NCBI GenBank assembly: GCA_030039865.1
Contig: JASHUS010000131.1
Location: 1-33,616 of the forward strand
Direction of reading: 5' to 3'
DNA from: Thermoplasmata archaeon
GTDB taxonomy: Archaea; Thermoplasmatota; Thermoplasmata; Lutacidiplasmatales; UBA184
DNA length: 33,616 nucleotides
Shown here: one piece after another, positions 8,158 through 33,616 of the stretch
Layout of the letters: each line of letters starts with the position of its first letter
Position numbering within the stretch: the stretch's first letter is position 1
Notes under the pieces: generated by a model
Seen by the model: only the letters and a program-made list of their open reading frames with translations
The model's database searches: none
What the model was told of the DNA's origin: nothing
Program-made: the position numbers and the translations under genes

Positions 8158-9477
8158 TCAGCTGAAGGCGTTCGACGGCACGTCTCCGGTGAGGCTATGC
8201 TCCCCGACGGCCACGAGTTCGTCACCGAGCAGACCGCTGGGAGAGTAGAGCACGACCGTGTCTCCCCCTTCGAGTCCACCGCTGAACGTCGAGTTGTCGA
8301 TCCAGCTTTCGCTCGAGGTCGAGTAGGTCGCCACCGTGTCCGGGCTCGTCGGAGCGACGAGGGAGACCAGGATTCCGGAGGGCCATGCCACGGTCGCGCC
8401 CGCGGAGTTGCGAAGAGCGAGGGAGATATCCGACGTGGTGACGGAGCTCGAAGCGCCCGCAACCTCGACCGTGTAGCAGTATTCTCCTTGGGTCTCCGGA
8501 CACTGCGCGAACGCCTGCCCGGTCGCATTGGTCGGTACGCCCCAGGCGAATTCGGTCCCGAGCGGCGCGGTGCTCGACGGCGCGGAGTAGGGGCAATCGA
8601 ACATGGAGGTGTTGTACACGCCGCCCTCGAGCGCCCCCGATGTCGCGTTCACGAAGCCCTCGACGGTCGTACCGATGGAGGGACCGGTGCCCGGGGTCGC
8701 ACTGCAGGTCGAGTAGTCCAGCACCCAAAGCGGAGTGTAGACGAGACCTCCTCCCGACGAACTCGGGCTAGCGACCAACACGTAGGTCGCGTTCGCGGAT
8801 TGGTGAGTCGCGACGAACGCCGCCACCGCCGGTGAACTGAGGAACGTCGTCGACACCGTGCTGGAGTCTTGGATACCGGCCGCCGGAAGAGGCGGCAGGA
8901 GCCCGAGCGGGCACGCGGTAGAGTTTGCACCGGAACCGATCTCCGTGACTCCGCCGTTCGCGTACTCGAGCAGAAGCACCGAGGTTCGCGCGGTGTTCAC
9001 GTAGGCGAAGCCCCACGCCGATACCGATCCGTCCGAGTAGTTGCCGGAGTGGGCGGGGATCGAGATCCCGCCGCTCCCGCCGGTGAGGTCGCATCCGCTG
9101 TATGAGCTCGCGTTGGAGTACGGGAGCTCGATGTTCCATCCCAATGCCTCCACGAGATTCCAAGGTCCGCCCGGTAGACCGGCTGCGTAGTTGTCTGCCG
9201 GGCTCGCGGCGGAGAGGTAGGTGGCGCTCGCACCGCTCGACGAGCTCGAGCGACCGATCGAAATGACACCGCTCGCGAAGAGTGCGACGACGAGCACCAC
9301 GACCACGACCACCGCTGCGACCACGATGAGCATCGGTCGAACGTTCCGCGGTCGCGAGGACCCCGAAGGCGGACGAGCCGCGGGCGCGGCAGCCGGCGGC
9401 GGGCTCGCGGGCGGCACGCTCTCGGCGGGGAGGTTCGTGGGGGGGTTCGACGTTCCGGCGTTACCGCTCGCGATCAT
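8158..9477 (-). CDS. Membrane-anchored, Ser/Thr-rich extracellular protein of unknown function (probable glycoprotein)
   Basis: 439 aa. A Pro-rich N-terminus is followed by the TM helix MLIVVAAVVVVVVLVVALFASG. At least eight N-x-S/T sequons are present. No recognisable catalytic motif. Confidence 0.65.
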   Translation of the reverse strand: MIASGNAGTSNPPTNLPAESVPPASPPPAAAPAARPPSGSSRPRNVRPMLIVVAAVVVVVVLVVALFASGVISIGRSSSSSGASATYLSAASPADNYAAGLPGGPWNLVEALGWNIELPYSNASSYSGCDLTGGSGGISIPAHSGNYSDGSVSAWGFAYVNTARTSVLLLEYANGGVTEIGSGANSTACPLGLLPPLPAAGIQDSSTVSTTFLSSPAVAAFVATHQSANATYVLVASPSSSGGGLVYTPLWVLDYSTCSATPGTGPSIGTTVEGFVNATSGALEGGVYNTSMFDCPYSAPSSTAPLGTEFAWGVPTNATGQAFAQCPETQGEYCYTVEVAGASSSVTTSDISLALRNSAGATVAWPSGILVSLVAPTSPDTVATYSTSSESWIDNSTFSGGLEGGDTVVLYSPSGLLGDELVAVGEHSLTGDVPSNAFS

Positions 9478-9663: not shown

Positions 9664-10857
9664 TCACTTCAGCATCGGCACGCCCAGTCGCTCGAGCGCG
9701 CGTCGCCGAAGATCCGTGAGCGCGTTCATGTAATTCGCGTAGGCGTCGTACGGGCTGTCGTAGCTCGAAAAGTACTGATGGACGCCCTGGTCCGCGCCGT
9801 GCCCGCTGACGTACATGTAGTAGAAGTGGTCGGACGTGAGCAGCTTCCGCCAGTCGTCGAGGATGGCCGGGTCCTTCGACTGGCGTGCGACGAGACCGAC
9901 CTTCTTGACGGCCTCGAACGCCGATCGCTGGAGGTCATTGCCGAGCCAGGCCCCGAGGTCCCGATTCTGGTCAGCCCAGCTCATCGTGTAGGGAACGCTG
10001 ATGGGCGCGCGGGGCGGAAGCTCGGCGGCTTCCTCGACGGTCGCCCAGCCGAGGTTCGGGTGGCGCGCGACTTCCCCCGGGAGCGCGGAGAGGAACTCGA
10101 GGATCCCGGTCTTCGCCGAGTGGTGTTCTCCGAACGTCTCGAAGTCCATGAAGAGGCCGAGGATCTCCCCGGGCGTGGCCGCCAGCCAACGCGCGTACTT
10201 GTCGGCCGTCAGCGGATACTCATTCCAGCCGGTCGACGAGAACCGGAAGCCGACGTCGTCGCTGAGGTGATAGTGACGGAGGAGCAGCGTCACGGTCGGA
10301 GCGTTGGCCGCGCAGTACGGATACGTCGGGGGCTCGCCGCGGAGAGCGCCCTCCCAACCTTCCGCGAGCATCCCGCGGAACCGCTCGCCTTCCGCGAACC
10401 GGGCGAGGTCGTCCGAGTACGCGAGCTCGGTCATTCGGAGCATCTTCGCGTGCGCTCCGAACTCGGTACGCAGGAGGGCCCGGTGTTGCGCGACCTCTTC
10501 CGCGAGCTCGGGCGGTGGCACGAGGAACGCGAGCGAGTGGTAGTACGTCTCGGCCAGGAAGGCCACGTGGCCGGTCCGCTGCAGGGCGCGCAGACGGTCC
10601 AGTACATCGGGGGCCGCGAGACGGGCCTGCTCGACGAACGTTCCCGTCACGGATAGACTGAGGCGAAACTCCGGTCGCGACTCGAGGAGCCGAAGCAGGC
10701 GGTCGAGCGCGGGACGATAGCAGCGGTCCGCGATCCCGCGGAAGATCGCGAGGTTGCGTTCGAGGTCGAAGTACGAACGTCCCGATCCGAGGTCGAGGTA
10801 CCGGAACCGGGCGAGCCGCCACGGTTGGTGCAGGTGAAGATAGAAGACGATCTTCAT
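9664..10857 (-). CDS. Glycoside hydrolase family 57 alpha-amylase-like protein
   Basis: I trimmed the 713-aa track ORF to the ATG at 10857 (MKIVFYLHLHQPWRL...). The HQP motif, FMDFETFGEH and the length (397 aa) fit archaeal GH57 amylases. The upstream part of the track ORF is Arg/Pro/Gly shadow sequence overlapping the next gene. Confidence 0.85.
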   Translation of the reverse strand: MKIVFYLHLHQPWRLARFRYLDLGSGRSYFDLERNLAIFRGIADRCYRPALDRLLRLLESRPEFRLSLSVTGTFVEQARLAAPDVLDRLRALQRTGHVAFLAETYYHSLAFLVPPPELAEEVAQHRALLRTEFGAHAKMLRMTELAYSDDLARFAEGERFRGMLAEGWEGALRGEPPTYPYCAANAPTVTLLLRHYHLSDDVGFRFSSTGWNEYPLTADKYARWLAATPGEILGLFMDFETFGEHHSAKTGILEFLSALPGEVARHPNLGWATVEEAAELPPRAPISVPYTMSWADQNRDLGAWLGNDLQRSAFEAVKKVGLVARQSKDPAILDDWRKLLTSDHFYYMYVSGHGADQGVHQYFSSYDSPYDAYANYMNALTDLRRRALERLGVPMLK

Positions 10858-15798: not shown

Positions 15799-16542
15799 CT
15801 AGGCCGAACCGCTCGCGTGCGTCACGCCGCGCGGAGCGTAGGCCCGGATGCGCAGAAGGTGGATCGCCGCGACGAGCGCCCACAGGAGGACGGGGGCCAC
15901 GATCGTCCGTTCGATCCCGCCGACCCCCCAGTCGCCCCAGACACCGCCCCAGGTCCACGCCTTCGCCACGAACAGGATGAGCGCGACGAAGCCGACGACC
16001 CCGCAGATCATCGTGAACGCTCGGAAACCGGACCAGCGCGTATCGCGGAACATGGACAGCGAGAGGACCACGAGGGCGAGGTTCGCGAACAGGAAGGCGA
16101 TGAGCGCCGAGATCATGTGGACGGTGAGGTTGTAGTCCTCGGGCGAGAACCCCACGCCGATCGCCCCGAAGCCCGCCAGCACGAGGAAGCCGAGACCGAT
16201 CCGTCGCGTGGCCCGAGCGGGGAACGCGGTGGTGATCAGGATGGTGCCGACGATGAGGCACAGCCCCATGATCACGATCGAGGCGTTGAAGACCAGGTGC
16301 CACGGCGAACAGACGTAGCGCCCGGCGAGCTCACCGCAGTTGATCGCGCCGAGATCGCTGATGTAGTTGTGCGCGAGGTTGTAGGACGGGTTGCCGGCGC
16401 GGAGGTCCCAGCCGACCTGCGTCAGGATCATCCCGAGGATGAACACCAGGACGCCGACGATCCAGAGGGTCGCTCCGTGGTGGACCGAGCGGTGGACGAG
16501 CGGCCCGTATCGCTCGCCCGGTACTTCCGGTTCGGCCGCCAC
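15799..16542 (-). CDS. DUF998-like integral membrane protein
   Basis: I trimmed the 479-aa track ORF to the GTG at 16542 (VAAEPEVPGERYGPLVHRSVHHGATLWIVGVLVF...), giving 247 aa. It has six hydrophobic helices. A GAGGT Shine-Dalgarno-like element lies about 10 nt upstream. Confidence 0.7.
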   Translation of the reverse strand: MAAEPEVPGERYGPLVHRSVHHGATLWIVGVLVFILGMILTQVGWDLRAGNPSYNLAHNYISDLGAINCGELAGRYVCSPWHLVFNASIVIMGLCLIVGTILITTAFPARATRRIGLGFLVLAGFGAIGVGFSPEDYNLTVHMISALIAFLFANLALVVLSLSMFRDTRWSGFRAFTMICGVVGFVALILFVAKAWTWGGVWGDWGVGGIERTIVAPVLLWALVAAIHLLRIRAYAPRGVTHASGSA

Positions 16543-16584
16543 GTGCTTTCGACCTCGTGCGCTGAATCCGGCTAGTGGGGCCCG

Positions 16585-16591
16585 ATATAAA
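16585..16591. promoter_or_regulatory. TATA box (ATATAAA) in the divergent 79-nt region between the DUF998 and methyltransferase genes
   Basis: The only AT-rich element in the spacer. It lies about 34 nt from the GTG at 16622 (+) and about 46 nt from the GTG at 16542 (-). Confidence 0.5.
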
Positions 16592-16621
16592 GGTGGGTTC
16601 TTCAATCGGCACCGGGGGATC

Positions 16622-17542
16622 GTGAACCCGAAGCGTACCCCTCGATCGCCGCCCGCCCATCGGTCGGCCGGCGCGGGCGGGCCGACGGCGCGGGACCGTT
16701 TCCTGCAGGCCGACCGGTACCGGATCGAGCGGGAGTGGCGCCGGTACGAAGGCACGCCGCAGCGCGATCTCTTCCGCATTCTTCGCGAGCGATTCATCGA
16801 GCGTAACGCGAGGAAGTCGACTTGGTCGCTCGACGTCGGATCCGGCCCGGGCCGGTTCACGGGCGCGATCACGGCGGCCGCGGGCCGTACGGTCGCGCTC
16901 GACCTGTCCCACGAAGTGCTCGAACGCTTGGCGGAGAAGTGGGCGCCGCCTCCCGAAGGTCCGCCGTTGCCGGATTGCGTCCGCGCGGACGCGGCGGTCC
17001 CTCCGTTCCGACCGGGTGCGTTCGGGACCGTCGCCGTGCTCGGCAACTCGCTCGGTTTCGCCGCCGGGCGATCGGGCGAACTGTTGGACGCTACAGCCGC
17101 CCTGGTGGGCCCGGGGGGCCATCTAATCCTCGAGATCGCGCCGGGTCCGGGTGAGTCGTCCCGGTATCTCGGTCGGCTTCCGGTCCGAAGCGTGGGCCGG
17201 CTCCTCGCGGCGCCGCCCGCGGCGCTGCTCCCTCGCATCGAGCGAGAAGGGTACCGGCGCGAGCCGCGTCGGAAGGACCGGGACGGCGAGTTCCAGCGAT
17301 GGTCGATCGACCACCTCCGGGAGCGGCTCGCGCCGGCCGGCTGGGAGTTGCTCGAATCGCTCGCCGTGGCTCCCGCGCTCGGCGCGGACGCGGAGCGCGT
17401 CGCCGCTGTGCGATCGAACGATCGCGCGTGGGGGAACCTCCTCGCGGTCGAAGAGGAGCTCGGCCGGCGGGAGTCACGCTGGTCTTCGGCGGCGGCCGTG
17501 CTCGTCGCCCTGCGCCGGGTACCGGTCCAAGCGTACGATTAA
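16622..17542 (+). CDS. Class I SAM-dependent methyltransferase with a C-terminal extension
   Basis: Trimmed to the GTG at 16622. Motif I is LDVGSGPGRF, followed by an acidic post-I residue (ALDLS) and LGNSLGF. About 150 aa after the Rossmann core are unassigned. Confidence 0.7.
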   Translation: MNPKRTPRSPPAHRSAGAGGPTARDRFLQADRYRIEREWRRYEGTPQRDLFRILRERFIERNARKSTWSLDVGSGPGRFTGAITAAAGRTVALDLSHEVLERLAEKWAPPPEGPPLPDCVRADAAVPPFRPGAFGTVAVLGNSLGFAAGRSGELLDATAALVGPGGHLILEIAPGPGESSRYLGRLPVRSVGRLLAAPPAALLPRIEREGYRREPRRKDRDGEFQRWSIDHLRERLAPAGWELLESLAVAPALGADAERVAAVRSNDRAWGNLLAVEEELGRRESRWSSAAAVLVALRRVPVQAYD

Positions 17543-17590: not shown

Positions 17591-20293
17591 GTGACGCTCA
17601 AGACGAAGGCGGGCACCCCCGCTCCGGCGACGCGATCCGTCACGGTCCCAGCGCCCGAGGACCTCGAGCTTGCGAAGGACGACGCCCTGCTCCAGTTGCG
17701 CATCGGTCGGGGCGCCCACCTGTATGCGGTGGTCCTCGCCGCGGCGTTCGCGCTCGACGGCATCCTGCTGCTCCTGTTCTACCCCAACCTCCCCTCCCTG
17801 ACGACTGGCGCGACCGGGACCGCCGCGGTCAGCGAGTCGTTCTACCTTCTCGTACCCGCGCTCGCCGGACTGGCGGTCGCGGGGGTCGGGCTCTACACGA
17901 AGTGGGACACGTACCAGCTCTGGCCCTGGGAACTCCATTTCTCCGTCACGTTCGGCGCGGTCCTTGCGAACGCGGGCCTCGTGCTCGTCTACGGGCTGCG
18001 GATCGCGGGGGTGGGTCCGTTCGCCGCTCTCTCGCTCATGCCGTGGTTCTATCCGGTCGAGCTCGCGGCGATCAGCGCCGCCTTCATCGGAGTGATCCTC
18101 ACCTGGAGCGACTGGGCGCTCCGGCAGTGGGTGAGCGCGCTCGCGGCGGTGCTACCGGTCGCGGCCGCCCTGCTCGTTTTCTTCCCGCCGTCGACCACGA
18201 CCGGCGCCTCGTCGGCCCTGGCCGTGAGCCTCTTCCTCGCGGCGATCCTCTACCTCATCTCGGGATCGTTTCTCCACCTCATCACCTCGGGCACGCGTCC
18301 CCACGAGCGCGCGCTCATCACCTCCGGACAGAGCCGGATGTTCCGGCTCGCGGACGAGATCCGGCAGAAGGAAGAGGTCGTCCACTTCCGCGAGGCGGCG
18401 GTCGTCAAGCGAGAGTCCGACGTCGAGAACAGCCTTCTCTCGATCAAGCGGCAGAACAACGCCCTCCGCGACGGGCGTCAGCAGCTCGATGACCTGGAGG
18501 AAGGCTACCGGCTCCGCTCCGACGCGCTGGTGTCCAAAGAGCGGACCTGGGCCGGACAGATCGCGACGCTCGACGCGCGAGAGCGCCTCCTCTCGGACAA
18601 GTCGAAGGCGCTCGAGCTCCGCGAGCAGGAAGTGCAGCGACTGGTGCCTCAGATCTCCGCCCGCGAGCAGCGTCTGGTCGACCAGGAGGGCCAGCTCACG
18701 GTGCGCGACGTCGACGTGAGCCGACGGGAGCAGGAGTTGGGCCCGCGGGAGCTGTCGATCTCCGAGGCCGAGCGTCGTGCGGAGGCACGACGGCGGGAGC
18801 TCGATCAGCGGACGGAGGAATTGCTGCGCCGGGAAGGGGAGGTCGCGGCGGGCGCCGCGAGCGTGGCCGGCGCGGTCGCGACCGCGGACCTCGCCGCTCG
18901 CGAGGCCCAGCTCCGGCAGCTCGAAACGACCCTCGACGACCAGAACGCCCGATTGGGCGCCACGGCGCGCCAGATCGCCGAGCGCTCCAAGGCGGCGGAC
19001 GCATCCGTCCAGCGTGCCACCCTCCGCGAGGCCGCGGCCGCCGCGCGCGAGGCCGGGGTCGCCCAACGCGAGGCCGAGCTGGCCGATCTCCTGGTCGCGG
19101 CGGACGCGCGTCGCACCGAGTACGAAGGGGCGACGCGGGACTACCAATCTCGTCTCGCGAGCCTCGGGAGCCAAGAGGCCGAGGTCGCCCGCCGGGGCGC
19201 GGACGCCGAGCGCGCGACCCGGGGTCTCGCCCAACGGGAAGCGACCCTGGCGACGCGGGAGGAGCAGGTCCGCTCCTACACCCTCGCGCTCGATCAGCGC
19301 GAGGGGGAGCTCACCGCGCGGGAGCGAGCGATCGAGGCGACCGAGGCCGAGGTCAATCTCCGGCGGCAGGAGGCCCTCCGAGGGGCCGATCTTCCGATGG
19401 CCGGACTCGCCGCCATGGCGTATGCCGCTCGCCTGGACGCACCCATGGCCTCGGCCGCTCGTCCGGCCGTGAGGACCCCGGTGACGGAGACGATCGACGT
19501 ACCGCCCCCCGCGCTCCCCGCGGAATCGACCCATCGGAGCGAAACCCTCACGCTACCGGCGAACCGGAGATTCGCGGATCGTCTACCGACCGGCACGCCA
19601 CGCCTCGACGACCTTCTGCTCGGCGGGCTGCCCGTCGGCGCGCAGGCCGCGATCGTGGGCGACACCTTCGTCGGGAAGGAAGTGGCGATCTACGCCTTCC
19701 TCGCGGAGGGCCTCAAGCGCGGCGAACCGGCGGTCATCGTCACGGCGTCGCGCTCGCCGGCCGAGATCTCCGAGAGCCTCGGCGTGGCCCTGCCGCAGTT
19801 CCGCGAGTACGAGCAGCTCGGGATGGTGCACTGGGTCGACGCGTCGGCGAGCGGCCCCGCGTCGGGCCCGAACCGGATCGTGGTGAATGGACCGGGAGAT
19901 CGGGCGGGCATCGCCAACGCACTCGGGGCGATCGCGAAGGATGGGGCCGAGGGCGAGAACCCTCCGCCGCGCGTAGCGTTCCTGGGCCTCGCGTCGACGA
20001 TCGGTCACGGCGAGGAGCGAGAGGGACTCTCGTTCCTTCAGAGCGTCGTCGGGACCCTCAAGACCCGGCGGAGCCTGGCGATGTACTCGCTCGAGCCCGG
20101 CGCCTTGTCCGAGGCGCAGGTCGAGACTCTCCTCGGCCGCATGGACGGGGCGATCGTGTTCCGTCAGGACCGGGATCGGACGTTCCTCTCGGTCAAGGGA
20201 TTCGGCGACGTGCAGACCCACGACTGGGTCGAGTGCCGCGCGACGCAACGCGCCCTGATCATCGGCTCGTTCGCGCTGGAACGGATCCGCTAG
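17591..20293 (+). CDS. Polytopic membrane domain + ~350-aa coiled coil + C-terminal degenerate KaiC/ArlH(FlaH)-like RecA-fold domain
   Basis: 900 aa with a GTG start. Hydrophobic helices span aa ~45-245. A charged heptad-like region spans aa 250-~598. The C-terminus reads LPTGTPRLDDLLLGGLPVGAQAAIVGDTFVGKEVAIYAFLAEGLKRGEPAVIVTASRSPAEI...TFLSVKGFGDV. Confidence 0.8.
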   Translation: MTLKTKAGTPAPATRSVTVPAPEDLELAKDDALLQLRIGRGAHLYAVVLAAAFALDGILLLLFYPNLPSLTTGATGTAAVSESFYLLVPALAGLAVAGVGLYTKWDTYQLWPWELHFSVTFGAVLANAGLVLVYGLRIAGVGPFAALSLMPWFYPVELAAISAAFIGVILTWSDWALRQWVSALAAVLPVAAALLVFFPPSTTTGASSALAVSLFLAAILYLISGSFLHLITSGTRPHERALITSGQSRMFRLADEIRQKEEVVHFREAAVVKRESDVENSLLSIKRQNNALRDGRQQLDDLEEGYRLRSDALVSKERTWAGQIATLDARERLLSDKSKALELREQEVQRLVPQISAREQRLVDQEGQLTVRDVDVSRREQELGPRELSISEAERRAEARRRELDQRTEELLRREGEVAAGAASVAGAVATADLAAREAQLRQLETTLDDQNARLGATARQIAERSKAADASVQRATLREAAAAAREAGVAQREAELADLLVAADARRTEYEGATRDYQSRLASLGSQEAEVARRGADAERATRGLAQREATLATREEQVRSYTLALDQREGELTARERAIEATEAEVNLRRQEALRGADLPMAGLAAMAYAARLDAPMASAARPAVRTPVTETIDVPPPALPAESTHRSETLTLPANRRFADRLPTGTPRLDDLLLGGLPVGAQAAIVGDTFVGKEVAIYAFLAEGLKRGEPAVIVTASRSPAEISESLGVALPQFREYEQLGMVHWVDASASGPASGPNRIVVNGPGDRAGIANALGAIAKDGAEGENPPPRVAFLGLASTIGHGEEREGLSFLQSVVGTLKTRRSLAMYSLEPGALSEAQVETLLGRMDGAIVFRQDRDRTFLSVKGFGDVQTHDWVECRATQRALIIGSFALERIR

Positions 20294-21284
20294 CCCCGAC
20301 CGTCGGGAGCGGTTCGTACTCGCGCCGGTCGACGGGGTAGAGTGGGGTCTCGCCCCGGAAGAACCGCGCCACGTTATCGAGCGCCGAGCGGAGGGCGTGG
20401 TCCTGGGTCGCCGGACCGAAGCCCGCGTTGTGCGGCGTTCCGAGGAAGTTCGGAAGGTCGATCAACGGGAACTGAGTCGTGAAGGTCCCCTGCGCGAAGT
20501 CCTCCTCCCACCAGGGATCGAAGGCGGCCCGGAATTCGGGGTGGTCCCGAAGGTGGTGGTACAACGCCTCCTCGTCCGCCGTGGCGGCCCGGCCCACGTT
20601 GATGTAGATGCCCCGCGACGGCATCGCCGTCAGTTCGGCGGCCCCGATGCTCCGGTCGGTCGACCGCGTGTGCGGGCGCGCGTCGAACACGACGTCGCCC
20701 TCCGCCAGCGCCTCCTGCAGGTTCTCCGCGGCGTACATCGCGGCCACGCCCGGCGCGGCCTCGCCGGACCGGTTGAGGCCGATCACGCGCATGCCCAAAC
20801 CCTCCGCCCGGCGGGCGATCTCCCGGCCGATCGCCCCATAACCGAGGATGAGCGCGGTTCGACCGACGAGGAGTCGGATGTCCGGCGGTGGCCGGAGCCG
20901 GTGCGCGTGCATCTGGACCTGAACGGGAACGATGGATCGCGCCGAAGCGAGCGCGAGCGCGATGGCGTGCTCGGCCACGAACGGCGCATACGCGCCGACG
21001 TTCGCCGAGATCTGGATTGGGTCCGGAAACCGTTCGAACGGGAAACGGTCCGCGCCGGTATAGATTAACTGGACCCAGCGGAGGCGCGGGGCCTCCCGGG
21101 CGTCGAACGAACCCAATTCCCGGTCGACCGATCCGACGAGCATCGCCTCGACGCTTCCCCAGTCGGACGCCGAGGACTCGGAGGTGAACCCCCAGGGAAG
21201 TCCCGGGAGGACCTCCCGGATCGTGGCCAGTGTCTCGGCGGCGGGCTTGAGCGCGATCGCAAGTCGGAGCGGTGCCGAGGGCAC
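20259..21284 (-). CDS. D-isomer-specific 2-hydroxyacid dehydrogenase family protein (NAD-binding)
   Basis: GYGAIGREIARRAEGLGMRVIG dinucleotide fold, NVGRA (catalytic Arg) and GTPHNAG (catalytic His). The 3' end overlaps the convergent 900-aa gene by 35 nt. Confidence 0.85.
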   Translation of the reverse strand: MPSAPLRLAIALKPAAETLATIREVLPGLPWGFTSESSASDWGSVEAMLVGSVDRELGSFDAREAPRLRWVQLIYTGADRFPFERFPDPIQISANVGAYAPFVAEHAIALALASARSIVPVQVQMHAHRLRPPPDIRLLVGRTALILGYGAIGREIARRAEGLGMRVIGLNRSGEAAPGVAAMYAAENLQEALAEGDVVFDARPHTRSTDRSIGAAELTAMPSRGIYINVGRAATADEEALYHHLRDHPEFRAAFDPWWEEDFAQGTFTTQFPLIDLPNFLGTPHNAGFGPATQDHALRSALDNVARFFRGETPLYPVDRREYEPLPTVGASGSVPARTSR

Positions 21285-23342: not shown

Positions 23343-23390
23343 GAGTTGCTCGCGCGGCCAGACGGCGCGGGCGTTCGGCCGACGGTTCGG

Positions 23391-24104
23391 CTACTCTTCG
23401 CGGGGACGCCGACGTCGGGGCCGCTCGTCGTCATCCTCGGAGCGGTCGCGTCGGTTCCGGTCGGGGTACGCACGGCGCGTGCCCCCCGGGCGGCCCCGGA
23501 ACGGAGGGCGCGAACTTCCGCCTCCCCGGTAGTCCCGGCGGCCCTGGAAGCTCGGCCGGCCACCGTAGCGGGGGCGGGCTCCGGGTCCCTCGCGGGGGGG
23601 AAGGGTGAACCGGTTGCCGCACGAGTCGCACTCCCCGACGAGGACGCCATCGTCGCCCGTCGTGAACCGCAGCGGCGCGCCGCACTTCCGGCACGGTCGG
23701 CTCCGGGGGCCCCCTTCGGCGGAGGCGGGAGCTCGATCGCGCGGCGTGAACCGGGGTCGCTCCTCCCGAGACCGCTCGGCCCCTTCCGGACGGTAGACCA
23801 CAGTGGATTCGCAGTCCGTGCAGACGGCCAGGACCGTCCCGTTCCGACCCGCGCGGAACGCGACCGGAGCGCCGCACTCCTCGCACTCGGGCGCGTCGGC
23901 CCCGGACTCGCCGGCGACGATCACGGGTGCGCCGACCGTCGTGGCACCCCCGGGCTCCACGGTAACGGGCAGGTGCCCGGCGAGCGTCGAGCCTTCCACG
24001 TAGGCGAACTCCTTCGCGCAGGAGGGACAGGTCCCCGTTCGTAGAACGACGGCCCGTTCCGTGAACTCCATCTCGGACCCGCAGGCCGGGCAGGAAGCGG
24101 TCAT
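23391..24104 (-). CDS. Triple zinc-ribbon protein with an Arg/Gly-rich (RGG-like) and acidic C-terminal tail
   Basis: From the ATG at 24104 (alternatives: ATG at 24116, TTG at 24224). It has three CxxCG...CxxC modules (CPACG..CPSC, CEECG..CTDC, CRKCG..CDSCG). The tail reads RPRYGGRPSFQGRRDYRGGGSSRPPFRGRPGGTRRAYPDRNRRDRSEDDDERPRRRRPREE. Confidence 0.7.
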   Translation of the reverse strand: MTASCPACGSEMEFTERAVVLRTGTCPSCAKEFAYVEGSTLAGHLPVTVEPGGATTVGAPVIVAGESGADAPECEECGAPVAFRAGRNGTVLAVCTDCESTVVYRPEGAERSREERPRFTPRDRAPASAEGGPRSRPCRKCGAPLRFTTGDDGVLVGECDSCGNRFTLPPREGPGARPRYGGRPSFQGRRDYRGGGSSRPPFRGRPGGTRRAYPDRNRRDRSEDDDERPRRRRPREE

Positions 24105-28825: not shown

Positions 28826-29416
28826 TCAGTCCTGCGGTCCGGGCTCCCGAGCGAACCATCCGCCCCGCTCGAGCTCGCGCACGACGAAGTCGACGCACTC
28901 CGTCGAGGAAAGTCGCCCTGCGTCGACCTGGATCTCGGGAGCCTCGGGGGGCTCGTACGGATCGTCGACGCCGGTCATCTCGTGGATCTCTCCGGCGAGC
29001 GCCTTCCGATAGAGACCCTTGGGGTCGCGCGCCATGCAAACTTCGAGGGGTGTCGCGACGTACACCTCGACGAACCGACCGATCGTGTCGCGGGCGGCGG
29101 CGCGCGACGCGCGGTACGGGGAGATGAGCGCCACGATCGGGATGGTTTCGTGGCGGGCCAGGAGCTTCGCCACGTAGGCGACCCGGCGCGCGTGCGCCTC
29201 GCGCGACCGGCGGTCAAAACCCAGGTCCGCGCTGAGTCCCTGCCGGACCTCGTCCCCGTCGAGCAGCTCGGCGCCCCAGCCCCGCTGCTTGAGCTTCGCG
29301 AGCAGCCCCTGCGCGATCGTCGTCTTCCCGGCCGCCGGAAGACCGGTCAGCCACAGGCAGAAGCCCTCGCGGCGGGAAACGGCCGGAGGCGAGGTCGCGT
29401 CCGGCATCTCAGGCAT
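28826..29416 (-). CDS. cysC: Adenylylsulfate (APS) kinase
   Basis: P-loop LTGLPAAGKTT, LDGDEVR, ISPY and DPKGLYRKA motifs. The start overlaps the sat stop by 8 nt. Confidence 0.9.
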   Translation of the reverse strand: MPEMPDATSPPAVSRREGFCLWLTGLPAAGKTTIAQGLLAKLKQRGWGAELLDGDEVRQGLSADLGFDRRSREAHARRVAYVAKLLARHETIPIVALISPYRASRAAARDTIGRFVEVYVATPLEVCMARDPKGLYRKALAGEIHEMTGVDDPYEPPEAPEIQVDAGRLSSTECVDFVVRELERGGWFAREPGPQD

Positions 29417-30575
29417 CGATCAGGACGTTCGGTCGGCGGAGGATCTCGGCGACCTCCGGGCGCAGGAGCTCGGCGGGGATCGGGCCGTTCTCGCGGAGGG
29501 CGCTTCGGATCCGGCTCTGGCTCGTGTCGATGCGATCGCTCGGGGGGTGGCCGCACGACCGGCTGCTCGTCGTTTGGCCGCATCGGCGACAATAGAACGA
29601 CTCGTCATACCGGAGGGGGACGATCCCGACGTCGTATTCGTCGAAGATCCGGTGCGCGGCGTACGGCTCGTAGAACGAGCCGACCCCCGCCTGGTCCCGA
29701 CCCACGATGTAGTGGGAGCAGCCGTAGTTCCTGCGGACGATCGCGAGGAAGAGGGCGGCCTTGGGCCCGGCGTAGCGCATCGCGATCGTGAGCGCCCCGA
29801 GCACGACCCGCTGCGGCGAGTAATAATTCGTGACGAGCGCCTCGTACGCCGCGAGGATGACCTCGGGTCGGTAGTCGCCCTTCTTGAGGCGGCCCACGAC
29901 CGGATGGATCAAGAGGCCGTCCACGTCCTCGCGTTCGAGCGTGACGCGCTGCAGGTACTCGTGCGCGACGTGCGGGGGGTTGCGGCACTGGTACGCTGCG
30001 ACCGACGACCAGCCTTTCTTCGCGAACAACGCGCGCAGCTCCCGGGGGGTGTACTCGAGGGGCGCCGTCGACTCCGGAAGACGCCGCAGAAGGTCGATCG
30101 AACCGGCGAGCGCCGTGTCCCCCCAGTTCGTGAGGTCCGCGACGTTCGGATGCTTCGCATCCGTCGTTCCGTAGACCGACCGTGCGAGCCGGGACCGGTC
30201 GACCGCGAACTTCTCGCTGAGGTGAAGGATCCCGATCAGGTGCCCCGAGGCGTCCTCGAGCCCGAGATCGTCGCCGGGGGCCGCGGCGTCGACCACGGAA
30301 CGGTTCGTGGGGCCGGCCGGTGCGAGGAGAATCGGGATCGACCAGGGAAGACCGCTCGGCAAGTGGGCGTCGCGCTCGACCGACTCGAGCTCGGCCGATC
30401 CCATGAACCCGATGAGCGGGCTGTAGGCCCCGATGCCAATCTTGTCGAGATCATAGAGCTCATCGATCGACGGTCGGACCCTCGGCAGATCCCGCGCCTC
30501 GTTCTCCCGACGGGCGCGTTCCACGTCGGAGATGCCGCGGTCGACGAGCGACCCACCGTACCCGGTCGGTATCAT
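29409..30575 (-). CDS. sat: Sulfate adenylyltransferase (ATP sulfurylase)
   Basis: Trimmed to the ATG at 30575 (MIPTGYGGSLVDR...). QCRNPPHVAHEYL and GRDQAGVG (HxxH / GRD) motifs are present. A C-terminal Cys cluster reads CRRCGQTTSSRSCGH. Confidence 0.9.
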   Translation of the reverse strand: MIPTGYGGSLVDRGISDVERARRENEARDLPRVRPSIDELYDLDKIGIGAYSPLIGFMGSAELESVERDAHLPSGLPWSIPILLAPAGPTNRSVVDAAAPGDDLGLEDASGHLIGILHLSEKFAVDRSRLARSVYGTTDAKHPNVADLTNWGDTALAGSIDLLRRLPESTAPLEYTPRELRALFAKKGWSSVAAYQCRNPPHVAHEYLQRVTLEREDVDGLLIHPVVGRLKKGDYRPEVILAAYEALVTNYYSPQRVVLGALTIAMRYAGPKAALFLAIVRRNYGCSHYIVGRDQAGVGSFYEPYAAHRIFDEYDVGIVPLRYDESFYCRRCGQTTSSRSCGHPPSDRIDTSQSRIRSALRENGPIPAELLRPEVAEILRRPNVLIDA

Positions 30576-30721
30576 GCGCCCGAGGCCCGAGCCTCGGCGT
30601 CGATCGTCAGAACCGGTTCGGAATCGGGGCAGAGGGCGGGGAATTCGCCGCGCGCGGGCCGGAGAAGGGAGACGACTCCCAGGGCGTTCTCGGACATCGC
30701 CCCGGGAGCAGGTCGGCGGTT

Positions 30722-31483
30722 TTAGGCGTTCGGGACCGGTCGGGCCACGGGTCGCTCGGCCGCCGCGGGGAGTCGGACGTCCTGGGCCCGAGCGAACTCC
30801 TCGAGCCACGGGCACTCGCGTAGCATCGTCTGGATCGCGGCGGGGCGGTTTCCGTATCGGCGCCAGCGCTGGGGCGAGAGGAGCTCAAAGCCCGAGACCG
30901 AGTTCTCCCGGCCAACGCCCGTGCCGAGGATCGTCACCCCTCCGCTGAGGAGTACGAGGGCTGGCAGGACAAGGATCAGCGCGAGGTAGGTCGGCCAGGT
31001 CGTAGCGGTCGCAAAGCCGAGCCCCCAGAAGACGGCGGAGGCCAACGCCGCCAGAGCGCCCCACACCAAGGGGCCGGCCGCGTACGTGTGGCATCGTGCC
31101 GAGCGGCGGAACTCGACGGAGGCGCGCACGTACTCCTTCAGCACCACCCCGACGACCGAGTTCGGCGTCGGCAGGTCCTCCGGATTATCGTGGGCGCTGA
31201 TCGCGCCGGCCATCTCGAGCTCGAGCAGCCGCAGTTGGCCGTACTCGGTCGCGAGGAGCACCCCGATCGAGAACGCGCCGATCATCCCGAGGATGAGCAG
31301 CAGGGGGACGAACGCGGCCGACTGGTTCGCGAGCGTCGTGGCCTCCGCGACCAGCAGGATCGCGTACGCGATGCCGACGATCACGCCCACCACGAGCACC
31401 CGGCCCTCCGGAGTATCCGGAGGGGGCGGGGACGGGAGGGTCCAGGACCGGGTCGGGGACGGTGGGCTGGCAGATTCGGACAC
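30722..31483 (-). CDS. Hypothetical membrane protein (four predicted TM helices, Pro-rich N-terminus)
   Basis: 253 aa, with hydrophobic segments VLVVGVIVGIAYAILLVAEA, FVPLLLILGMIGAFSIGVLLA, LVWGALAALASAVFWGLGFA and YLALILVLPALVLLSGGVTIL. G/C third positions are good. Confidence 0.6.
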   Translation of the reverse strand: MSESASPPSPTRSWTLPSPPPPDTPEGRVLVVGVIVGIAYAILLVAEATTLANQSAAFVPLLLILGMIGAFSIGVLLATEYGQLRLLELEMAGAISAHDNPEDLPTPNSVVGVVLKEYVRASVEFRRSARCHTYAAGPLVWGALAALASAVFWGLGFATATTWPTYLALILVLPALVLLSGGVTILGTGVGRENSVSGFELLSPQRWRRYGNRPAAIQTMLRECPWLEEFARAQDVRLPAAAERPVARPVPNA

Positions 31484-31605: not shown

Positions 31606-32310
31606 ATGGAGAGGGATTGGGGCAACAGCGTGCCGCCGGCGAGGACCCGGAGTTGGAATGACGTCCTCGATAATCTCGGCGAGAATCTGATCCGGCTCGG
31701 CACGTCGCTCTCGGTATTGGCCGACACTCCGGCCAACGCCGCGAGCGAGGCGACGTTCATCCAGTCGATGGAGCGGATCGCGACCGGTTTCCGGCTCGCG
31801 TTCCGTCAGGCCCGGCCCGCGCTCGTCGCCGGGGAACCCGTGTTCGTCCAGCTGACGAAGATGAGCGTCGACGAGCTCGCCACCGTCCACTCGGTCAGCG
31901 CGACGGAGAAGCTCGGCGGCGCCCACACGCTCGTCCACGAGGGCGTGCTGGTCTGCCAAGAGATGGTCGCGCTGCTCAACCTGATCGAGCAGGGAGCTCA
32001 GACCGAGCCCGAGCGCACTCGTCAGACGTTCCTCTCCTCGCTGCGGGCGCTTGCGGAGGTCACGGCGTCCTCGGGTTGGGATCTACGCAACGTGAGCCAC
32101 GAGTACGAGGCCGAGTCCCGGCTCACCGAGGGCCGTGGGGGGACGCCCCGGCCGGTTGCGACGGCCTCGATGGGCCTTCTCCACGACATGGCCGAGGCGG
32201 CCCGAGGTCTCCGCGCCGCACGGCGTGAGTGGTTCCGGATCGGACAGCGGCTCTCCTCGGTCCTTGGACCCGAGGTTGGAACCGTCGTGCTCGCCACCGA
32301 GGTCAACTGA
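31606..32310 (+). CDS. Hypothetical, predicted helical cytoplasmic protein
   Basis: 234 aa with no TM segments and coding-like composition. I recognise no family. It is divergent from the membrane protein at 30722-31483. Confidence 0.55.
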   Translation: MERDWGNSVPPARTRSWNDVLDNLGENLIRLGTSLSVLADTPANAASEATFIQSMERIATGFRLAFRQARPALVAGEPVFVQLTKMSVDELATVHSVSATEKLGGAHTLVHEGVLVCQEMVALLNLIEQGAQTEPERTRQTFLSSLRALAEVTASSGWDLRNVSHEYEAESRLTEGRGGTPRPVATASMGLLHDMAEAARGLRAARREWFRIGQRLSSVLGPEVGTVVLATEVN

Positions 32311-32411
32311 TCCGCGGGGGGTCCTCCTCACCGCAAGTGTCGCACGCATCGCGACACCACGTAAGTATCGGTAGTACGTACCGGGGCCACCGCCTCCAGT
32401 CCAAAATGCTT

Positions 32412-32419
32412 CTATAGTA
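32412..32419 (+). promoter_or_regulatory. TATA-like box (CTATAGTA) about 25 nt upstream of the ATG at 32440
   Basis: An AT-rich element at the appropriate spacing. Confidence 0.4.
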
Positions 32420-32439
32420 GGCCCCACCGTCCTTCGCCC

Positions 32440-33616
32440 ATGGACCCCGCCTGGGCCAAGCCAAGACCGGTCTGGATACTGCCGATTGCGATCGCGATTT
32501 GCGCGGTGATGGTGCTCTCCGGAGCCGGAGCGATGCTCCTGCTCGGGAGTTCGGCGTCGCACAGCGGGGGTGGATCCGCCACGCCGGCCTCATCGGCCGC
32601 GGCCAGTTCTTCTGCGGCAGCGAGCGCGCACAATGCTCCCGCGTCCTCGGGCTCGTCGTTTGGGAACGCTCTCAGCGATCTGGGCTCGATTAAGACCCTC
32701 GCCGCCGAACAGCTCACCGCGGACGAAAAACAAGTCGACGCGGATCACCTCCAACCGATTACTTCGCTGCCCGCCGCGGGCCTACTCCAGCACGGCGTGA
32801 CCGTGGGCCAGGACGGCATCGTACCGCTCTACACGACCCAACCCGCCCCGATCGGCATCGGGGACTTCGGACTCGGCGCGAGCGGACCGTACGCCTACAA
32901 CACGAGCAGCGTGCTCGGTTCGATCACCTTCAACTCGCAGCCGAACGCGACGAACCCGGGGGCGTCCGACACGGTCGACCCGGGCGCGACGCACCTCGGC
33001 GAGGTCGCGTCGACCAACGAGTTCACGATCCAACTCAACACGATCCTGACGAACGTGACCCAGCCGGGGAGCTACAACGGGACGTACTGGACCCAGAACG
33101 TCCTCGACGTCTCCTCGACGGGGATCCACTTCGTCGACGACGTCTTCAACCAGTCCGGTGACGGCGTCGACATCGCGCCCAACGCGATCCTGTCGGGCTG
33201 CCCCGGCGGGCCGAGCGTCCAGGACATCATCGACCTCTACGGCATCTACCAGTGCGTCGGGACCACGATCCCGATCACCGCCGCCAACTACCCGCTCTCG
33301 ATCTGGCTGTGGAACAACGCGTCCGTCGTCAACAACGAGGACGTGCTCACGTTCAGCTACTGGATCTCGGTCGCGGCCGGCCTCGAGATGTACGGCATCT
33401 CCGACCAGTTGACGTTCAACAGCACCGGCTACGCGCTGACCCCTGCCTACCCGACCGCGTTCGAAGTGAACGGTTGGACCGGCACACCGGGCGGGCTCTT
33501 CTACGACTCGGAGCTCATCCTCGGCGGAGCGATCGGCGGCTCCAACGCCGTGTTCTCATCGCTCAGCGCGACGGACTCGTTGAAGTACGTCACCAGCACC
33601 GGGGTATGGAAGAACG
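32440..33616 (+). CDS. Thermopsin-like (peptidase A5 family) secreted protease, N-terminally anchored. The 3' end runs off the window.
   Basis: I translated it by hand and it is open to the window end. An N-terminal TM helix (VWILPIAIAICAVMVLSGAGAMLLL) and a Ser/Ala linker come first. Then come PAPIGIGDFGLG, FTIQLNTIL, YWTQNVLDV and SELILGGAIGGSNAVF segments that match thermopsin family blocks from memory. Many N-x-S/T sequons are present. Confidence 0.7.
   Translation, partial: MDPAWAKPRPVWILPIAIAICAVMVLSGAGAMLLLGSSASHSGGGSATPASSAAASSSAAASAHNAPASSGSSFGNALSDLGSIKTLAAEQLTADEKQVDADHLQPITSLPAAGLLQHGVTVGQDGIVPLYTTQPAPIGIGDFGLGASGPYAYNTSSVLGSITFNSQPNATNPGASDTVDPGATHLGEVASTNEFTIQLNTILTNVTQPGSYNGTYWTQNVLDVSSTGIHFVDDVFNQSGDGVDIAPNAILSGCPGGPSVQDIIDLYGIYQCVGTTIPITAANYPLSIWLWNNASVVNNEDVLTFSYWISVAAGLEMYGISDQLTFNSTGYALTPAYPTAFEVNGWTGTPGGLFYDSELILGGAIGGSNAVFSSLSATDSLKYVTSTGVWKN

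Follow-up and report, generated by a model that had tools for sequence, protein, structure and literature searches.

The DNA analysed here is a contig of 33,616 nucleotides (JASHUS010000131.1, referred to below as the window) from a Thermoplasmata archaeon of the Lutacidiplasmatales, and the subject of this study is one of its genes, which encodes a 900-aa protein composed of a six-helix membrane domain, two long helical arms and a C-terminal KaiC-like head in which the catalytic residues of KaiC are replaced. We propose, with about even confidence, that this protein is a membrane-anchored, non-catalytic KaiC-like ('inactivated KaiC', iKaiC) adaptor that relays or scaffolds a membrane-proximal signal. 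The fusion of iKaiC domains to signalling modules is a recognised theme in archaea (PMC5847659). The positions of all the elements discussed are collected in Table 1.

The window has a G+C content of 69%, and long open reading frames (ORFs) in it are often spurious. The 900-aa ORF, which begins with a GTG codon, is a real gene, as its codon-position bias is that of real genes (G+C of 0.89 at third positions, GC3, and 0.51 at second positions, GC2) and homologues of its product exist. At least 225 homologues were found, and 120 among the matches listed are full-length, with 55–67% identity. In a scan of one genome per species, relatives were present in 132 genomes. The best 80 of these 132 relatives share 41–67% identity with the window protein, and 78 of the 80 come from metagenome-assembled genomes (MAGs) titled Thermoplasmata archaeon, mostly from soil, peat and sediment. 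One of the related loci (L020, DAIDCO010000014.1) is titled 'bacterium', yet it is an archaeal locus with full synteny, comprising the genes for acetyl-CoA synthetase, the DUF998 protein, the methyltransferase, the 900-aa protein, the dehydrogenase, the HAD protein and YaaH; this MAG is probably mislabelled. At least 402 further contigs from a metagenome scan encode relatives of a distant branch of the family.

The profile of the membrane domain alone, compared with 1.84 billion cluster representatives, retrieved only 64 clusters at E up to 1e-3, most of them with members of 840–970 residues. The KaiC domain was found at the C-terminal end in 9 of the 10 distant membrane-domain clusters tested, and the tenth (P0179, E 3e-5) is an ABC-transporter permease, probably matched by chance. 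The membrane domain is confined almost wholly to the architecture of six transmembrane helices, arms and KaiC head. At least some of the shorter membrane-domain matches are partial records or split genes. Two such entries, a 666-aa piece (P0125) and a 172-aa piece (P0207), lie on the same contig of 80,826 nt and have a full-length 894-aa member in the same cluster; these short split members are frameshifts or MAG assembly errors. The named members of the 64 clusters belong to uncultured Thermoplasmata, 'Euryarchaeota' and Candidatus Lutacidiplasmatales MAGs and are annotated as hypothetical or 'ATPase domain-containing'. The search of Pfam, NCBIfam, PADLOC, the PDB and the literature disclosed no curated family, solved structure or paper describing a protein with six membrane helices, a double arm and a GKE-type head. 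Literature searches covering DUF7504, iKaiC and KaiC in Thermoplasmata brought up nothing on such an architecture, and neither the 900-aa protein nor the DUF998 protein encoded nearby matched any of the PADLOC anti-phage defence models. The original prediction, made from the sequence alone, knew of no characterised family with this three-part architecture, and none turned up in these sources.

The three-part layout itself is real. It emerges alike from hydropathy and from an AlphaFold2 model of the whole protein based on 120 sequences, and the homologues are full-length. The sub-coordinates first given for it were arithmetically right, including the placing of the GDTFVGKE loop at aa 690–697. 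The C-terminal head of about 230 residues adopts a RecA-like alpha/beta fold according to AlphaFold2 and Foldseek. The Pfam profile PF06745 (KaiC) matched aa 666–755 with 41.7 bits, against a gathering cut-off of 26.6. It also matched all 31 aligned members, on which every Pfam profile count across the family is based, with a best E of 4.6e-14 and about 200 residues covered in distant members. A phmmer search of the PDB found KaiC at E 1.8e-12, and the best sequence matches of the head were KaiC and the single-domain archaeal proteins PH0284, PH0186 and SSO2452. The model of aa 655–900 alone reached a predicted template modelling score (pTM) of 0.82, and an alpha/beta domain occupies residues 666–895 of the full-length model. 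In Foldseek, the head model matched PH0284 (2dr3) at E 1.2e-12 with template modelling (TM) scores of 0.73/0.77, as well as KaiC CI (target-normalised score, TMt, 0.72–0.76), KaiC CII and FlaH/ArlH (4yds, 0.65/0.70). The assignment of a KaiC/ArlH-type RecA fold thus withstood profile, sequence and structural comparison. Few regions of the protein are as well conserved as the KaiC-like domain, and its C-terminal tail is kept as [GA][SA]F-x-LERI[RK] in nearly all distant representatives. Two more specific identities were considered and rejected. For the circadian clock KaiC proper, the protein has only a single domain and, with the NCBIfam models NF006799 and TIGR02655, scored 30.2 bits against an equivalog cut-off of 408 and 21.5 against one of 546. 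For the archaellum protein ArlH/FlaH (NF004723), the score was 11.7 bits against a cut-off of 194, and there are no arl genes in the window or in the conserved neighbourhood.

The catalytic elements of KaiC were followed through 75 species-level orthologues (41–67% identity) and 35 distant representatives of 50%-identity clusters; the 75 orthologues also served for the arm-length counts. In the P-loop, GDTFVGKE stands opposite KaiC GTSGTGKT: the Gly and Lys are retained, the Mg-binding Thr is replaced by Glu, as had been read from the window protein alone, and the Walker A pattern G-x-x-x-x-G-K-[ST] is broken. This degenerate P-loop is conserved among the homologues, with G-x-x-F-x-G-K-E in 75/75 orthologues and G-x-x-[FY]-x-G-K-E in 34 of the 35 distant representatives; in the single exception (P0123) the whole C-terminal part is scrambled. 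The same substitutions occur even in representatives whose membrane domain matches at only E ~1e-4. At the second site, the family-profile alignment places VTA(A/S)RSP opposite KaiC VTFEESP, and the catalytic Glu pair is Ser-Arg in the window protein. Arg721 is kept in the common orthologue variants listed, while distant members have mostly Arg or Lys, often Lys, and the preceding residue is Ala, Ser or Thr across the family. The third site is the strand RVAFLGLAS, which the original prediction had taken for the place of the missing Walker B acid. The correspondence rests on secondary-structure order, strand 794–798 coming after helix 771–787 in the AlphaFold2 model, and on a hidden Markov model (HMM) alignment that runs in PH0284 as far as the beginning of the KRVVV strand, which continues as DS. 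There is no Asp or Glu in RVAFLGL (aa 794–800), the listed common orthologue variants read [FY]-[LF]-G-L, and none of the intact family members shown has either acid in this strand. Close homologues all have Gly799, which in distant ones is Ser, Thr or Asn, often Ser.

To judge from these alignments, the head has lost the P-loop Ser/Thr, the Glu pair and the Walker B acid; the catalytic degeneracy proposed at the outset is borne out and, with the loss of the Glu pair, reaches further than was claimed. Fixation of the degenerate motifs throughout the family shows that the substitutions are held by selection, and the reading of the head as a maintained pseudo-ATPase, not a decaying copy, is well supported. 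It unites a KaiC-like fold with disrupted catalytic motifs and with fusion to membrane and helical modules, and the disruption of all three catalytic motifs places it in the inactivated KaiC class, apart from the ATPases. The head is predicted to be unable to hydrolyse ATP, and the name 'ATPase' given to the family in databases is almost certainly wrong. Such names ('ATPase domain-containing protein', 'KaiC/GvpD/RAD55 family RecA-like ATPase') and the retained P-loop Lys would suit an active enzyme of the KaiC type, either an ATPase or an autokinase, whose active site is unusual; however, the three missing elements are not restored in any intact member examined, and we give this explanation hardly any credence.

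The known geometry of KaiC brings the Walker A Thr and the catalytic Glu together at the Mg/gamma-phosphate site, and Glu697 and Arg/Lys721 are accordingly expected to be near enough for a site-filling salt bridge, which probably closes the site. The same residues can be read in another way, which we regard as unlikely: the head could be a nucleotide-binding, non-hydrolysing switch that holds ATP, ADP or another phosphorylated ligand through the P-loop backbone and Lys696, with Glu697 ligating a metal directly and Arg721 contacting the phosphates. Its occupancy, set by the energy state of the cell, would alter the conformation or oligomerisation of the head, with the arms passing the change on to the membrane domain or carrying a signal in the opposite direction. 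The P-loop Gly and Lys are invariant despite the lost catalysis, which is unexpected for a merely structural loop, and ArlH/FlaH, a structural neighbour of the head, binds ATP with a degenerate Walker B. On the other hand, a carboxylate at the Ser/Thr position and the loss of the Walker B Asp remove both usual Mg ligands, and the site could just as well be filled by the Arg/Lys that stands in place of the catalytic Glu.

The N-terminal part of the protein tethers it to the membrane, as indicated by both hydropathy and AlphaFold2. Of the 'six to seven' hydrophobic helices first counted, both methods agree on six. In the model, the helices of the membrane region span residues 22–63, 77–108, 115–139, 153–169, 177–197 and 206–233, with predicted local distance difference test (pLDDT) scores above 90. 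In the N-terminal helix, D31–L36 and R40 are invariant in close-homologue alignments, and its LLQLRxGR motif is also retained in the distant branch. The cytoplasmic side of the membrane domain carries the conserved motifs KW-x-x-YQLWPWE-x-HFS and GSFLHLISSGT; conservation is among the highest in the protein in the cytoplasmic loops, the sixth transmembrane helix and the juxtamembrane segment (GSFLHLISSGTR-x-HERE). The three outside loops are short and uncharged and form the least conserved parts of the domain. Charges lie on the cytoplasmic side, a distribution consistent with an N-in/C-in topology, and the short, uncharged and variable outside loops argue against a classical extracellular ligand-binding sensor. 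The membrane domain belongs to no Pfam family. A weak Pfam match to DUF2070 (E 0.006), present in 1 of the 31 members, was treated as chance, and the full-length model submitted to Foldseek for relatives of the membrane domain returned only KaiC-type structures among the 50 best matches shown.

The stretch between the membrane domain and the head had been described as an uninterrupted heptad-like coil with recurring RE motifs. Its heptad character stands: 13 of the 16 spacings between RE dipeptides are multiples of 7, and RE[AQ]x[LV] is found 8 times, where shuffled sequences would give 0.3. It is not uninterrupted, since the hinge at aa 415–433, with an uncharged run at aa 418–432, divides it into two arms that differ in register. 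In arm 1 the register is constant over residues 267–414, with RE at position mod 7 = 1 except for the RE at 402; in arm 2, over residues 437–577, RE falls at position mod 7 = 3. The heptad periodicity of a coiled coil is thus present and steady over about 150 residues per arm, and both arms share the consensus L-x-x-R-E-(A/Q)-(E/A). However, each heptad has a single hydrophobic position (85% LIVMF in arm 1 and 74% in arm 2 among the 75 orthologues), and the would-be second core positions, 3 or 4 residues off, are 54% Arg and 45% Glu. The arms are therefore not a canonical two-stranded a/d coiled coil. Arm 1 compared with arm 2 by BLASTP showed only weak similarity (E 0.002), such as could stem from shared repeats or from an old duplication. 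A precomputed label, PF27881 (CRWN_N), was a 'faint' match to a plant coiled-coil family and was dismissed as compositional.

Arm 1, counted from aa 257 to 414 (window 18359–18832), is 158 aa long in 75/75 orthologues, and arm 2 is 163 aa long in 73/75, whereas the hinge varies from 19 to 37 aa and the linker between arm 2 and the head from 23 to 87 aa. This linker, the Pro/Ala-rich segment already noted after the coil, is present and disordered, has the lowest conservation of all regions and carries a semi-conserved LP-x-AGLAA. In the distant branch the arms are Lys/Glu-rich and have no Gly/Ala hinge; they still show a long unbroken register, a shift near the middle and then a second register, which is largely kept. 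The arms would span about 48 nm fully extended and about 24 nm folded at the hinge, the folded-back form being equally possible, so the rod of about 50 nm suggested at first holds as an upper bound and not as a fixed length. An automated comparison of arm lengths across the family, relying on a brittle end-of-arm criterion, was too noisy to be interpreted.

The strictly invariant arm lengths, next to a hinge and linker free to vary, are what would be expected of a structural spacer or membrane skeleton with no signalling role, either a 'molecular ruler' placing a RecA-fold head oligomer 25–50 nm below the membrane or an envelope stiffener. The two-arm layout retained even in the distant branch and the location of the gene among housekeeping genes also speak for such a function. 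Nevertheless, the strong conservation of the cytoplasmic loops and of specific Arg and Glu positions of arm 1 suggests specific interactions, and a helix with one hydrophobic residue per heptad is predicted to associate weakly and not to form a stiff cable; we consider a purely structural role distinctly improbable.

The most notable linkage of the gene is with a methyltransferase. A gene for a class-I S-adenosylmethionine (SAM)-dependent methyltransferase ends 48 nt upstream on the same strand, and such a gene lies directly upstream in 76 of 80 related loci, the other 4 having no upstream DNA. The 76 loci include those at 41–45% identity, where all downstream synteny is gone. The element GATATAAAGG upstream of the methyltransferase gene is a putative promoter, and no comparable TATA-like or AT-rich element was found in the 48-nt gap; together these observations suggest that both genes are co-transcribed, and the methyltransferase is probably the operon partner of the 900-aa protein in this clade. 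The DUF998 membrane-protein gene, transcribed away from the methyltransferase gene, accompanies it in 68 of the 80 loci, and an independent gene call also found DUF998 in locus L161. Both genes are absent beside the target in the distant branch, so the linkage is clade-specific and not family-wide. The methyltransferase has generic class-I signatures without that of CheR, and in PADLOC it gave only a weak generic match (mad2, E 2.9e-6).

This linkage and the arms bring to mind a methylation-tuned receptor like the methyl-accepting chemotaxis proteins (MCPs), in which the arms would fold as an antiparallel hairpin and the upstream methyltransferase would methylate Glu, Gln or Arg of the heptads, adapting the output of the pseudo-KaiC head. 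The conserved position of the methyltransferase gene, also in the loci that have lost downstream synteny, the intergenic gap devoid of a TATA-like element, the nearly equal length of the two hinge-joined arms and the abundance of Glu, Gln and Arg in their heptads all fit such a scheme. It is nonetheless very unlikely in our judgement, as the enzyme is of the generic type, it is absent beside the gene in the distant branch, and no MCPsignal (PF00015) or HAMP match appeared in Pfam or NCBIfam at E up to 1; the hairpin is unproven, and the arm-length comparison was too noisy for co-variation. In its fullest form, this idea would unite the protein with the methyltransferase in an archaeal receptor system not recognised before, MCP/CheR-like but built of different parts, whose six-helix module would sense a membrane-side cue and whose dead head, through its conformation or oligomeric state, would control an active KaiC-family partner; we offer it as a speculation with little chance of being right.

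We return to the non-catalytic adaptor as the preferred reading, in which a docking or relay role is suggested by the anatomy of the protein, the lost catalysis and the iKaiC precedent. The membrane domain, conserved on its cytoplasmic face, would provide anchoring and possibly input. The length-fixed arms would hold the head at a set geometry to the membrane domain and could transmit its conformational change, with the disordered linker acting as a tether between arms and head. The dead head and its invariant tail would form a surface for docking or oligomerisation, used for instance by an active KaiC-family ATPase or by a different partner, and the protein would relay or scaffold a membrane-proximal signal without ATP turnover. 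The 'scaffold or sensor' role named in the original prediction likewise stays an inference. Several observations weigh against the adaptor. Genes for kaiB, arl, che or other signalling functions were not found in the 33.6-kb window. The neighbourhood is not conserved family-wide, other neighbours accompanying the distant branch. The membrane domain has no structural or sequence relative in Pfam or Foldseek that would hint at the sensed cue. The single hydrophobic position per heptad makes the oligomeric state and rigidity of the arms uncertain, and, with the P-loop Gly and Lys still in place, the head may continue to bind a phosphate-bearing ligand.

Table 1. Positions of the 900-aa protein gene, its parts and the associated upstream elements in the window
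Feature	Position (nt)	Strand	Basis
DUF998 membrane-protein gene, divergent from the methyltransferase gene	15799..16542, start uncertain (16542 or 16605)	-	Pfam PF06197
TATA-like element GATATAAAGG	16583..16592	+	Read from sequence, ~30 nt upstream of the methyltransferase GTG start
Class-I SAM-dependent methyltransferase gene	16622..17542	+	Pfam Methyltransf_25/11, start-codon choice
Whole gene of the membrane / helical-arm / inactivated-KaiC protein, 900 aa	17591..20293, stop codon included	+	ORF translation, codon-position GC, full-length homologues
Conserved cytoplasmic N-terminal helix, aa 15-40, ...EDLELAKDDALLQLRIGR	17633..17710	+	Conservation, AlphaFold2 helix
Six-helix membrane domain, aa 41-233, N-in/C-in	17711..18289	+	Hydropathy, AlphaFold2, conservation and charge by region
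Juxtamembrane helix and arm 1, aa 236-414	18296..18832	+	AlphaFold2 helix 236-414, constant heptad register
Hinge, aa 415-433, uncharged Gly/Ala/Ser/Val	18833..18889	+	pLDDT below 50, non-helical
Arm 2, aa 434-596, same heptad consensus, register shifted by 2	18890..19378	+	AlphaFold2 helix 433-596
Disordered Pro/Ala-rich linker, aa 597-664	19379..19582	+	pLDDT 30-41
Inactivated KaiC-like RecA-fold domain, aa 665-900	19583..20290	+	Pfam PF06745, AlphaFold2, Foldseek
Degenerate P-loop GDTFVGKE, aa 690-697	19658..19681	+	Aligned to KaiC GTSGTGKT
TASRSP, aa 718-723, KaiC catalytic Glu-Glu position	19742..19759	+	Profile alignment
Walker B-equivalent strand RVAFLGLAS, aa 794-802	19970..19996	+	Secondary-structure order and PH0284 HMM alignment
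C-terminal tail GSFALERIR, aa 892-900	20264..20290	+	Invariant in close-homologue alignments

The window is otherwise a piece of ordinary chromosome, with genes for a sugar ABC transporter, a GH15 protein, triosephosphate isomerase (TIM), acetyl-CoA synthetase, a 2-hydroxyacid dehydrogenase, a HAD protein, an acetate-channel family protein, sulfate activation and a thermopsin. The gene neighbourhood was rejected as a guide to function: the neighbours in the window are housekeeping genes, downstream synteny is lost at 41–45% identity, and only the methyltransferase and DUF998 genes persist. In the distant branch (loci L081–L160), the divergent upstream gene encodes a peroxiredoxin-like protein of the Bcp/AhpC type, judged by translation, in 62 loci; farther out, 54 loci have a small conserved gene. 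At its 3' end, the target gene shares 35 nt (20259–20293) with the convergent ORF of the 2-hydroxyacid dehydrogenase (20259–21284, minus strand). Several real genes are overlapped by long antisense ORFs, which can even look 'conserved' in tblastn; one of them, a 479-aa ORF on the minus strand (15799–17238), runs through the methyltransferase gene (plus-strand ORF 16391–17542). Only aa 281–460 of this ORF match DUF998, and the apparent conservation is a by-product of high G+C and of conserved coding on the opposite strand. The genes of sulfate activation, for adenosine 5'-phosphosulfate (APS) kinase and ATP sulfurylase, are adjacent at 28826–30815 on the minus strand. The gene of the thermopsin-family acid protease (32365–33616, plus strand) runs past the end of the window and fits a Thermoplasmata origin. 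Five ORFs of 230–440 aa gave no Pfam match at E up to 1e-4: 8158–9477 (minus), 9778–10656 (plus), 23346–24044 (plus), 30722–31483 (minus) and 31606–32310 (plus).

Although KaiC-like proteins are regarded as the principal native signalling hubs in archaea, almost none has been studied beyond clocks, archaella and gas vesicles. The architecture described here is an uncharacterised, well-delimited variant within the accepted theme of inactivated KaiC fusions and not a categorical surprise. The family, widespread in uncultured Thermoplasmata of soil, peat and sediment, is a clean case of a pseudo-ATPase under strong selection, with uniform catalytic replacements, a retained P-loop Lys and an invariant tail, and its head is joined to a membrane domain private to the family and to ruler-like arms of invariant length, all within a large group of uncultured archaea. 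Should a partner and a cue be found, they would give a first handle on membrane-linked KaiC-type signalling in this group and a natural case study of a RecA-fold active site turned into a binding module.

Among known systems, the nearest in kind are the iKaiC domains, including the Pfam families MEDS, DUF7504 and DUF7090, which likewise have a KaiC fold without catalytic motifs, occur in fusions and are predicted to act in signalling. The members of the present family gave sub-threshold or marginal Pfam matches to MEDS (22 of 31 members), DUF7504 and DUF7090. Makarova, Galperin and Koonin reportedly described the iKaiC domains of archaeal signal-transduction proteins in 2017. These families are known mainly from Halobacteria and methanogens, fused to REC, PAS, HalOD1 or similar domains, and no description of six membrane helices with a double-arm coil, of the GKE P-loop or of the LERIR tail was found for them. 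The closest relatives in fold and size are the single-domain archaeal KaiC-like ATPases PH0284 (2dr3), PH0186 and SSO2452, which are the best Foldseek and HMM matches of the head (E 5e-14 with the family profile) and have the N-terminal motif LPTG-x-x-x-LD-x-LL-GG-hP in common with it. In contrast, these proteins are soluble and stand-alone, with a canonical GKT P-loop and a Walker B Asp, whereas here the catalytic residues are replaced and the head is carried on a 660-residue membrane and helical module.

More distant likenesses concern single parts of the protein. The arms resemble the A/E/R/K/Q-rich helices that follow the membrane anchor in the N-terminal region of RNase Y, in b-type stalks of ATP synthase and in FlbB. 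All 31 members matched RNase_Y_N (best E 4.6e-10), with the window protein itself below the gathering score, and FlbB was matched as well; these matches are driven by composition and periodicity, and the present arms are several times longer, consist of two fixed-length halves and end in a RecA fold. The head recalls Elp4/5/6 (PAXNEB) and the Rad51 paralogues, which are also RecA-fold subunits without catalytic residues that serve as assembly or binding platforms. Weak PAXNEB matches, below the Pfam threshold and limited to the P-loop region, were seen in 26 of the 31 members. Proteins of this type are, however, eukaryotic, soluble and organised as hetero-hexamers, and the evidence of homology extends no further than the superfamily.

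Two further systems are similar in their overall plan. The methyl-accepting chemotaxis proteins with CheR likewise combine a membrane anchor, very long, Glu/Gln-rich heptad arms of equal length joined by a turn, and a SAM methyltransferase gene alongside; in those receptors the tip of the hairpin binds CheA/CheW, whereas here a pseudo-ATPase head follows the second arm and a hairpin is unproven. In the crenarchaeal archaellum motor, ArlX (FlaX) is a membrane-anchored coiled-coil protein that binds ArlH (FlaH), the KaiC-like structural neighbour of the head (4yds, query-normalised score, TMq, 0.65). The protein described here is formally like an ArlX-type anchor and coil fused to an ArlH-type head, although ArlX has one membrane helix as opposed to six here, and ArlH keeps a canonical Walker A.

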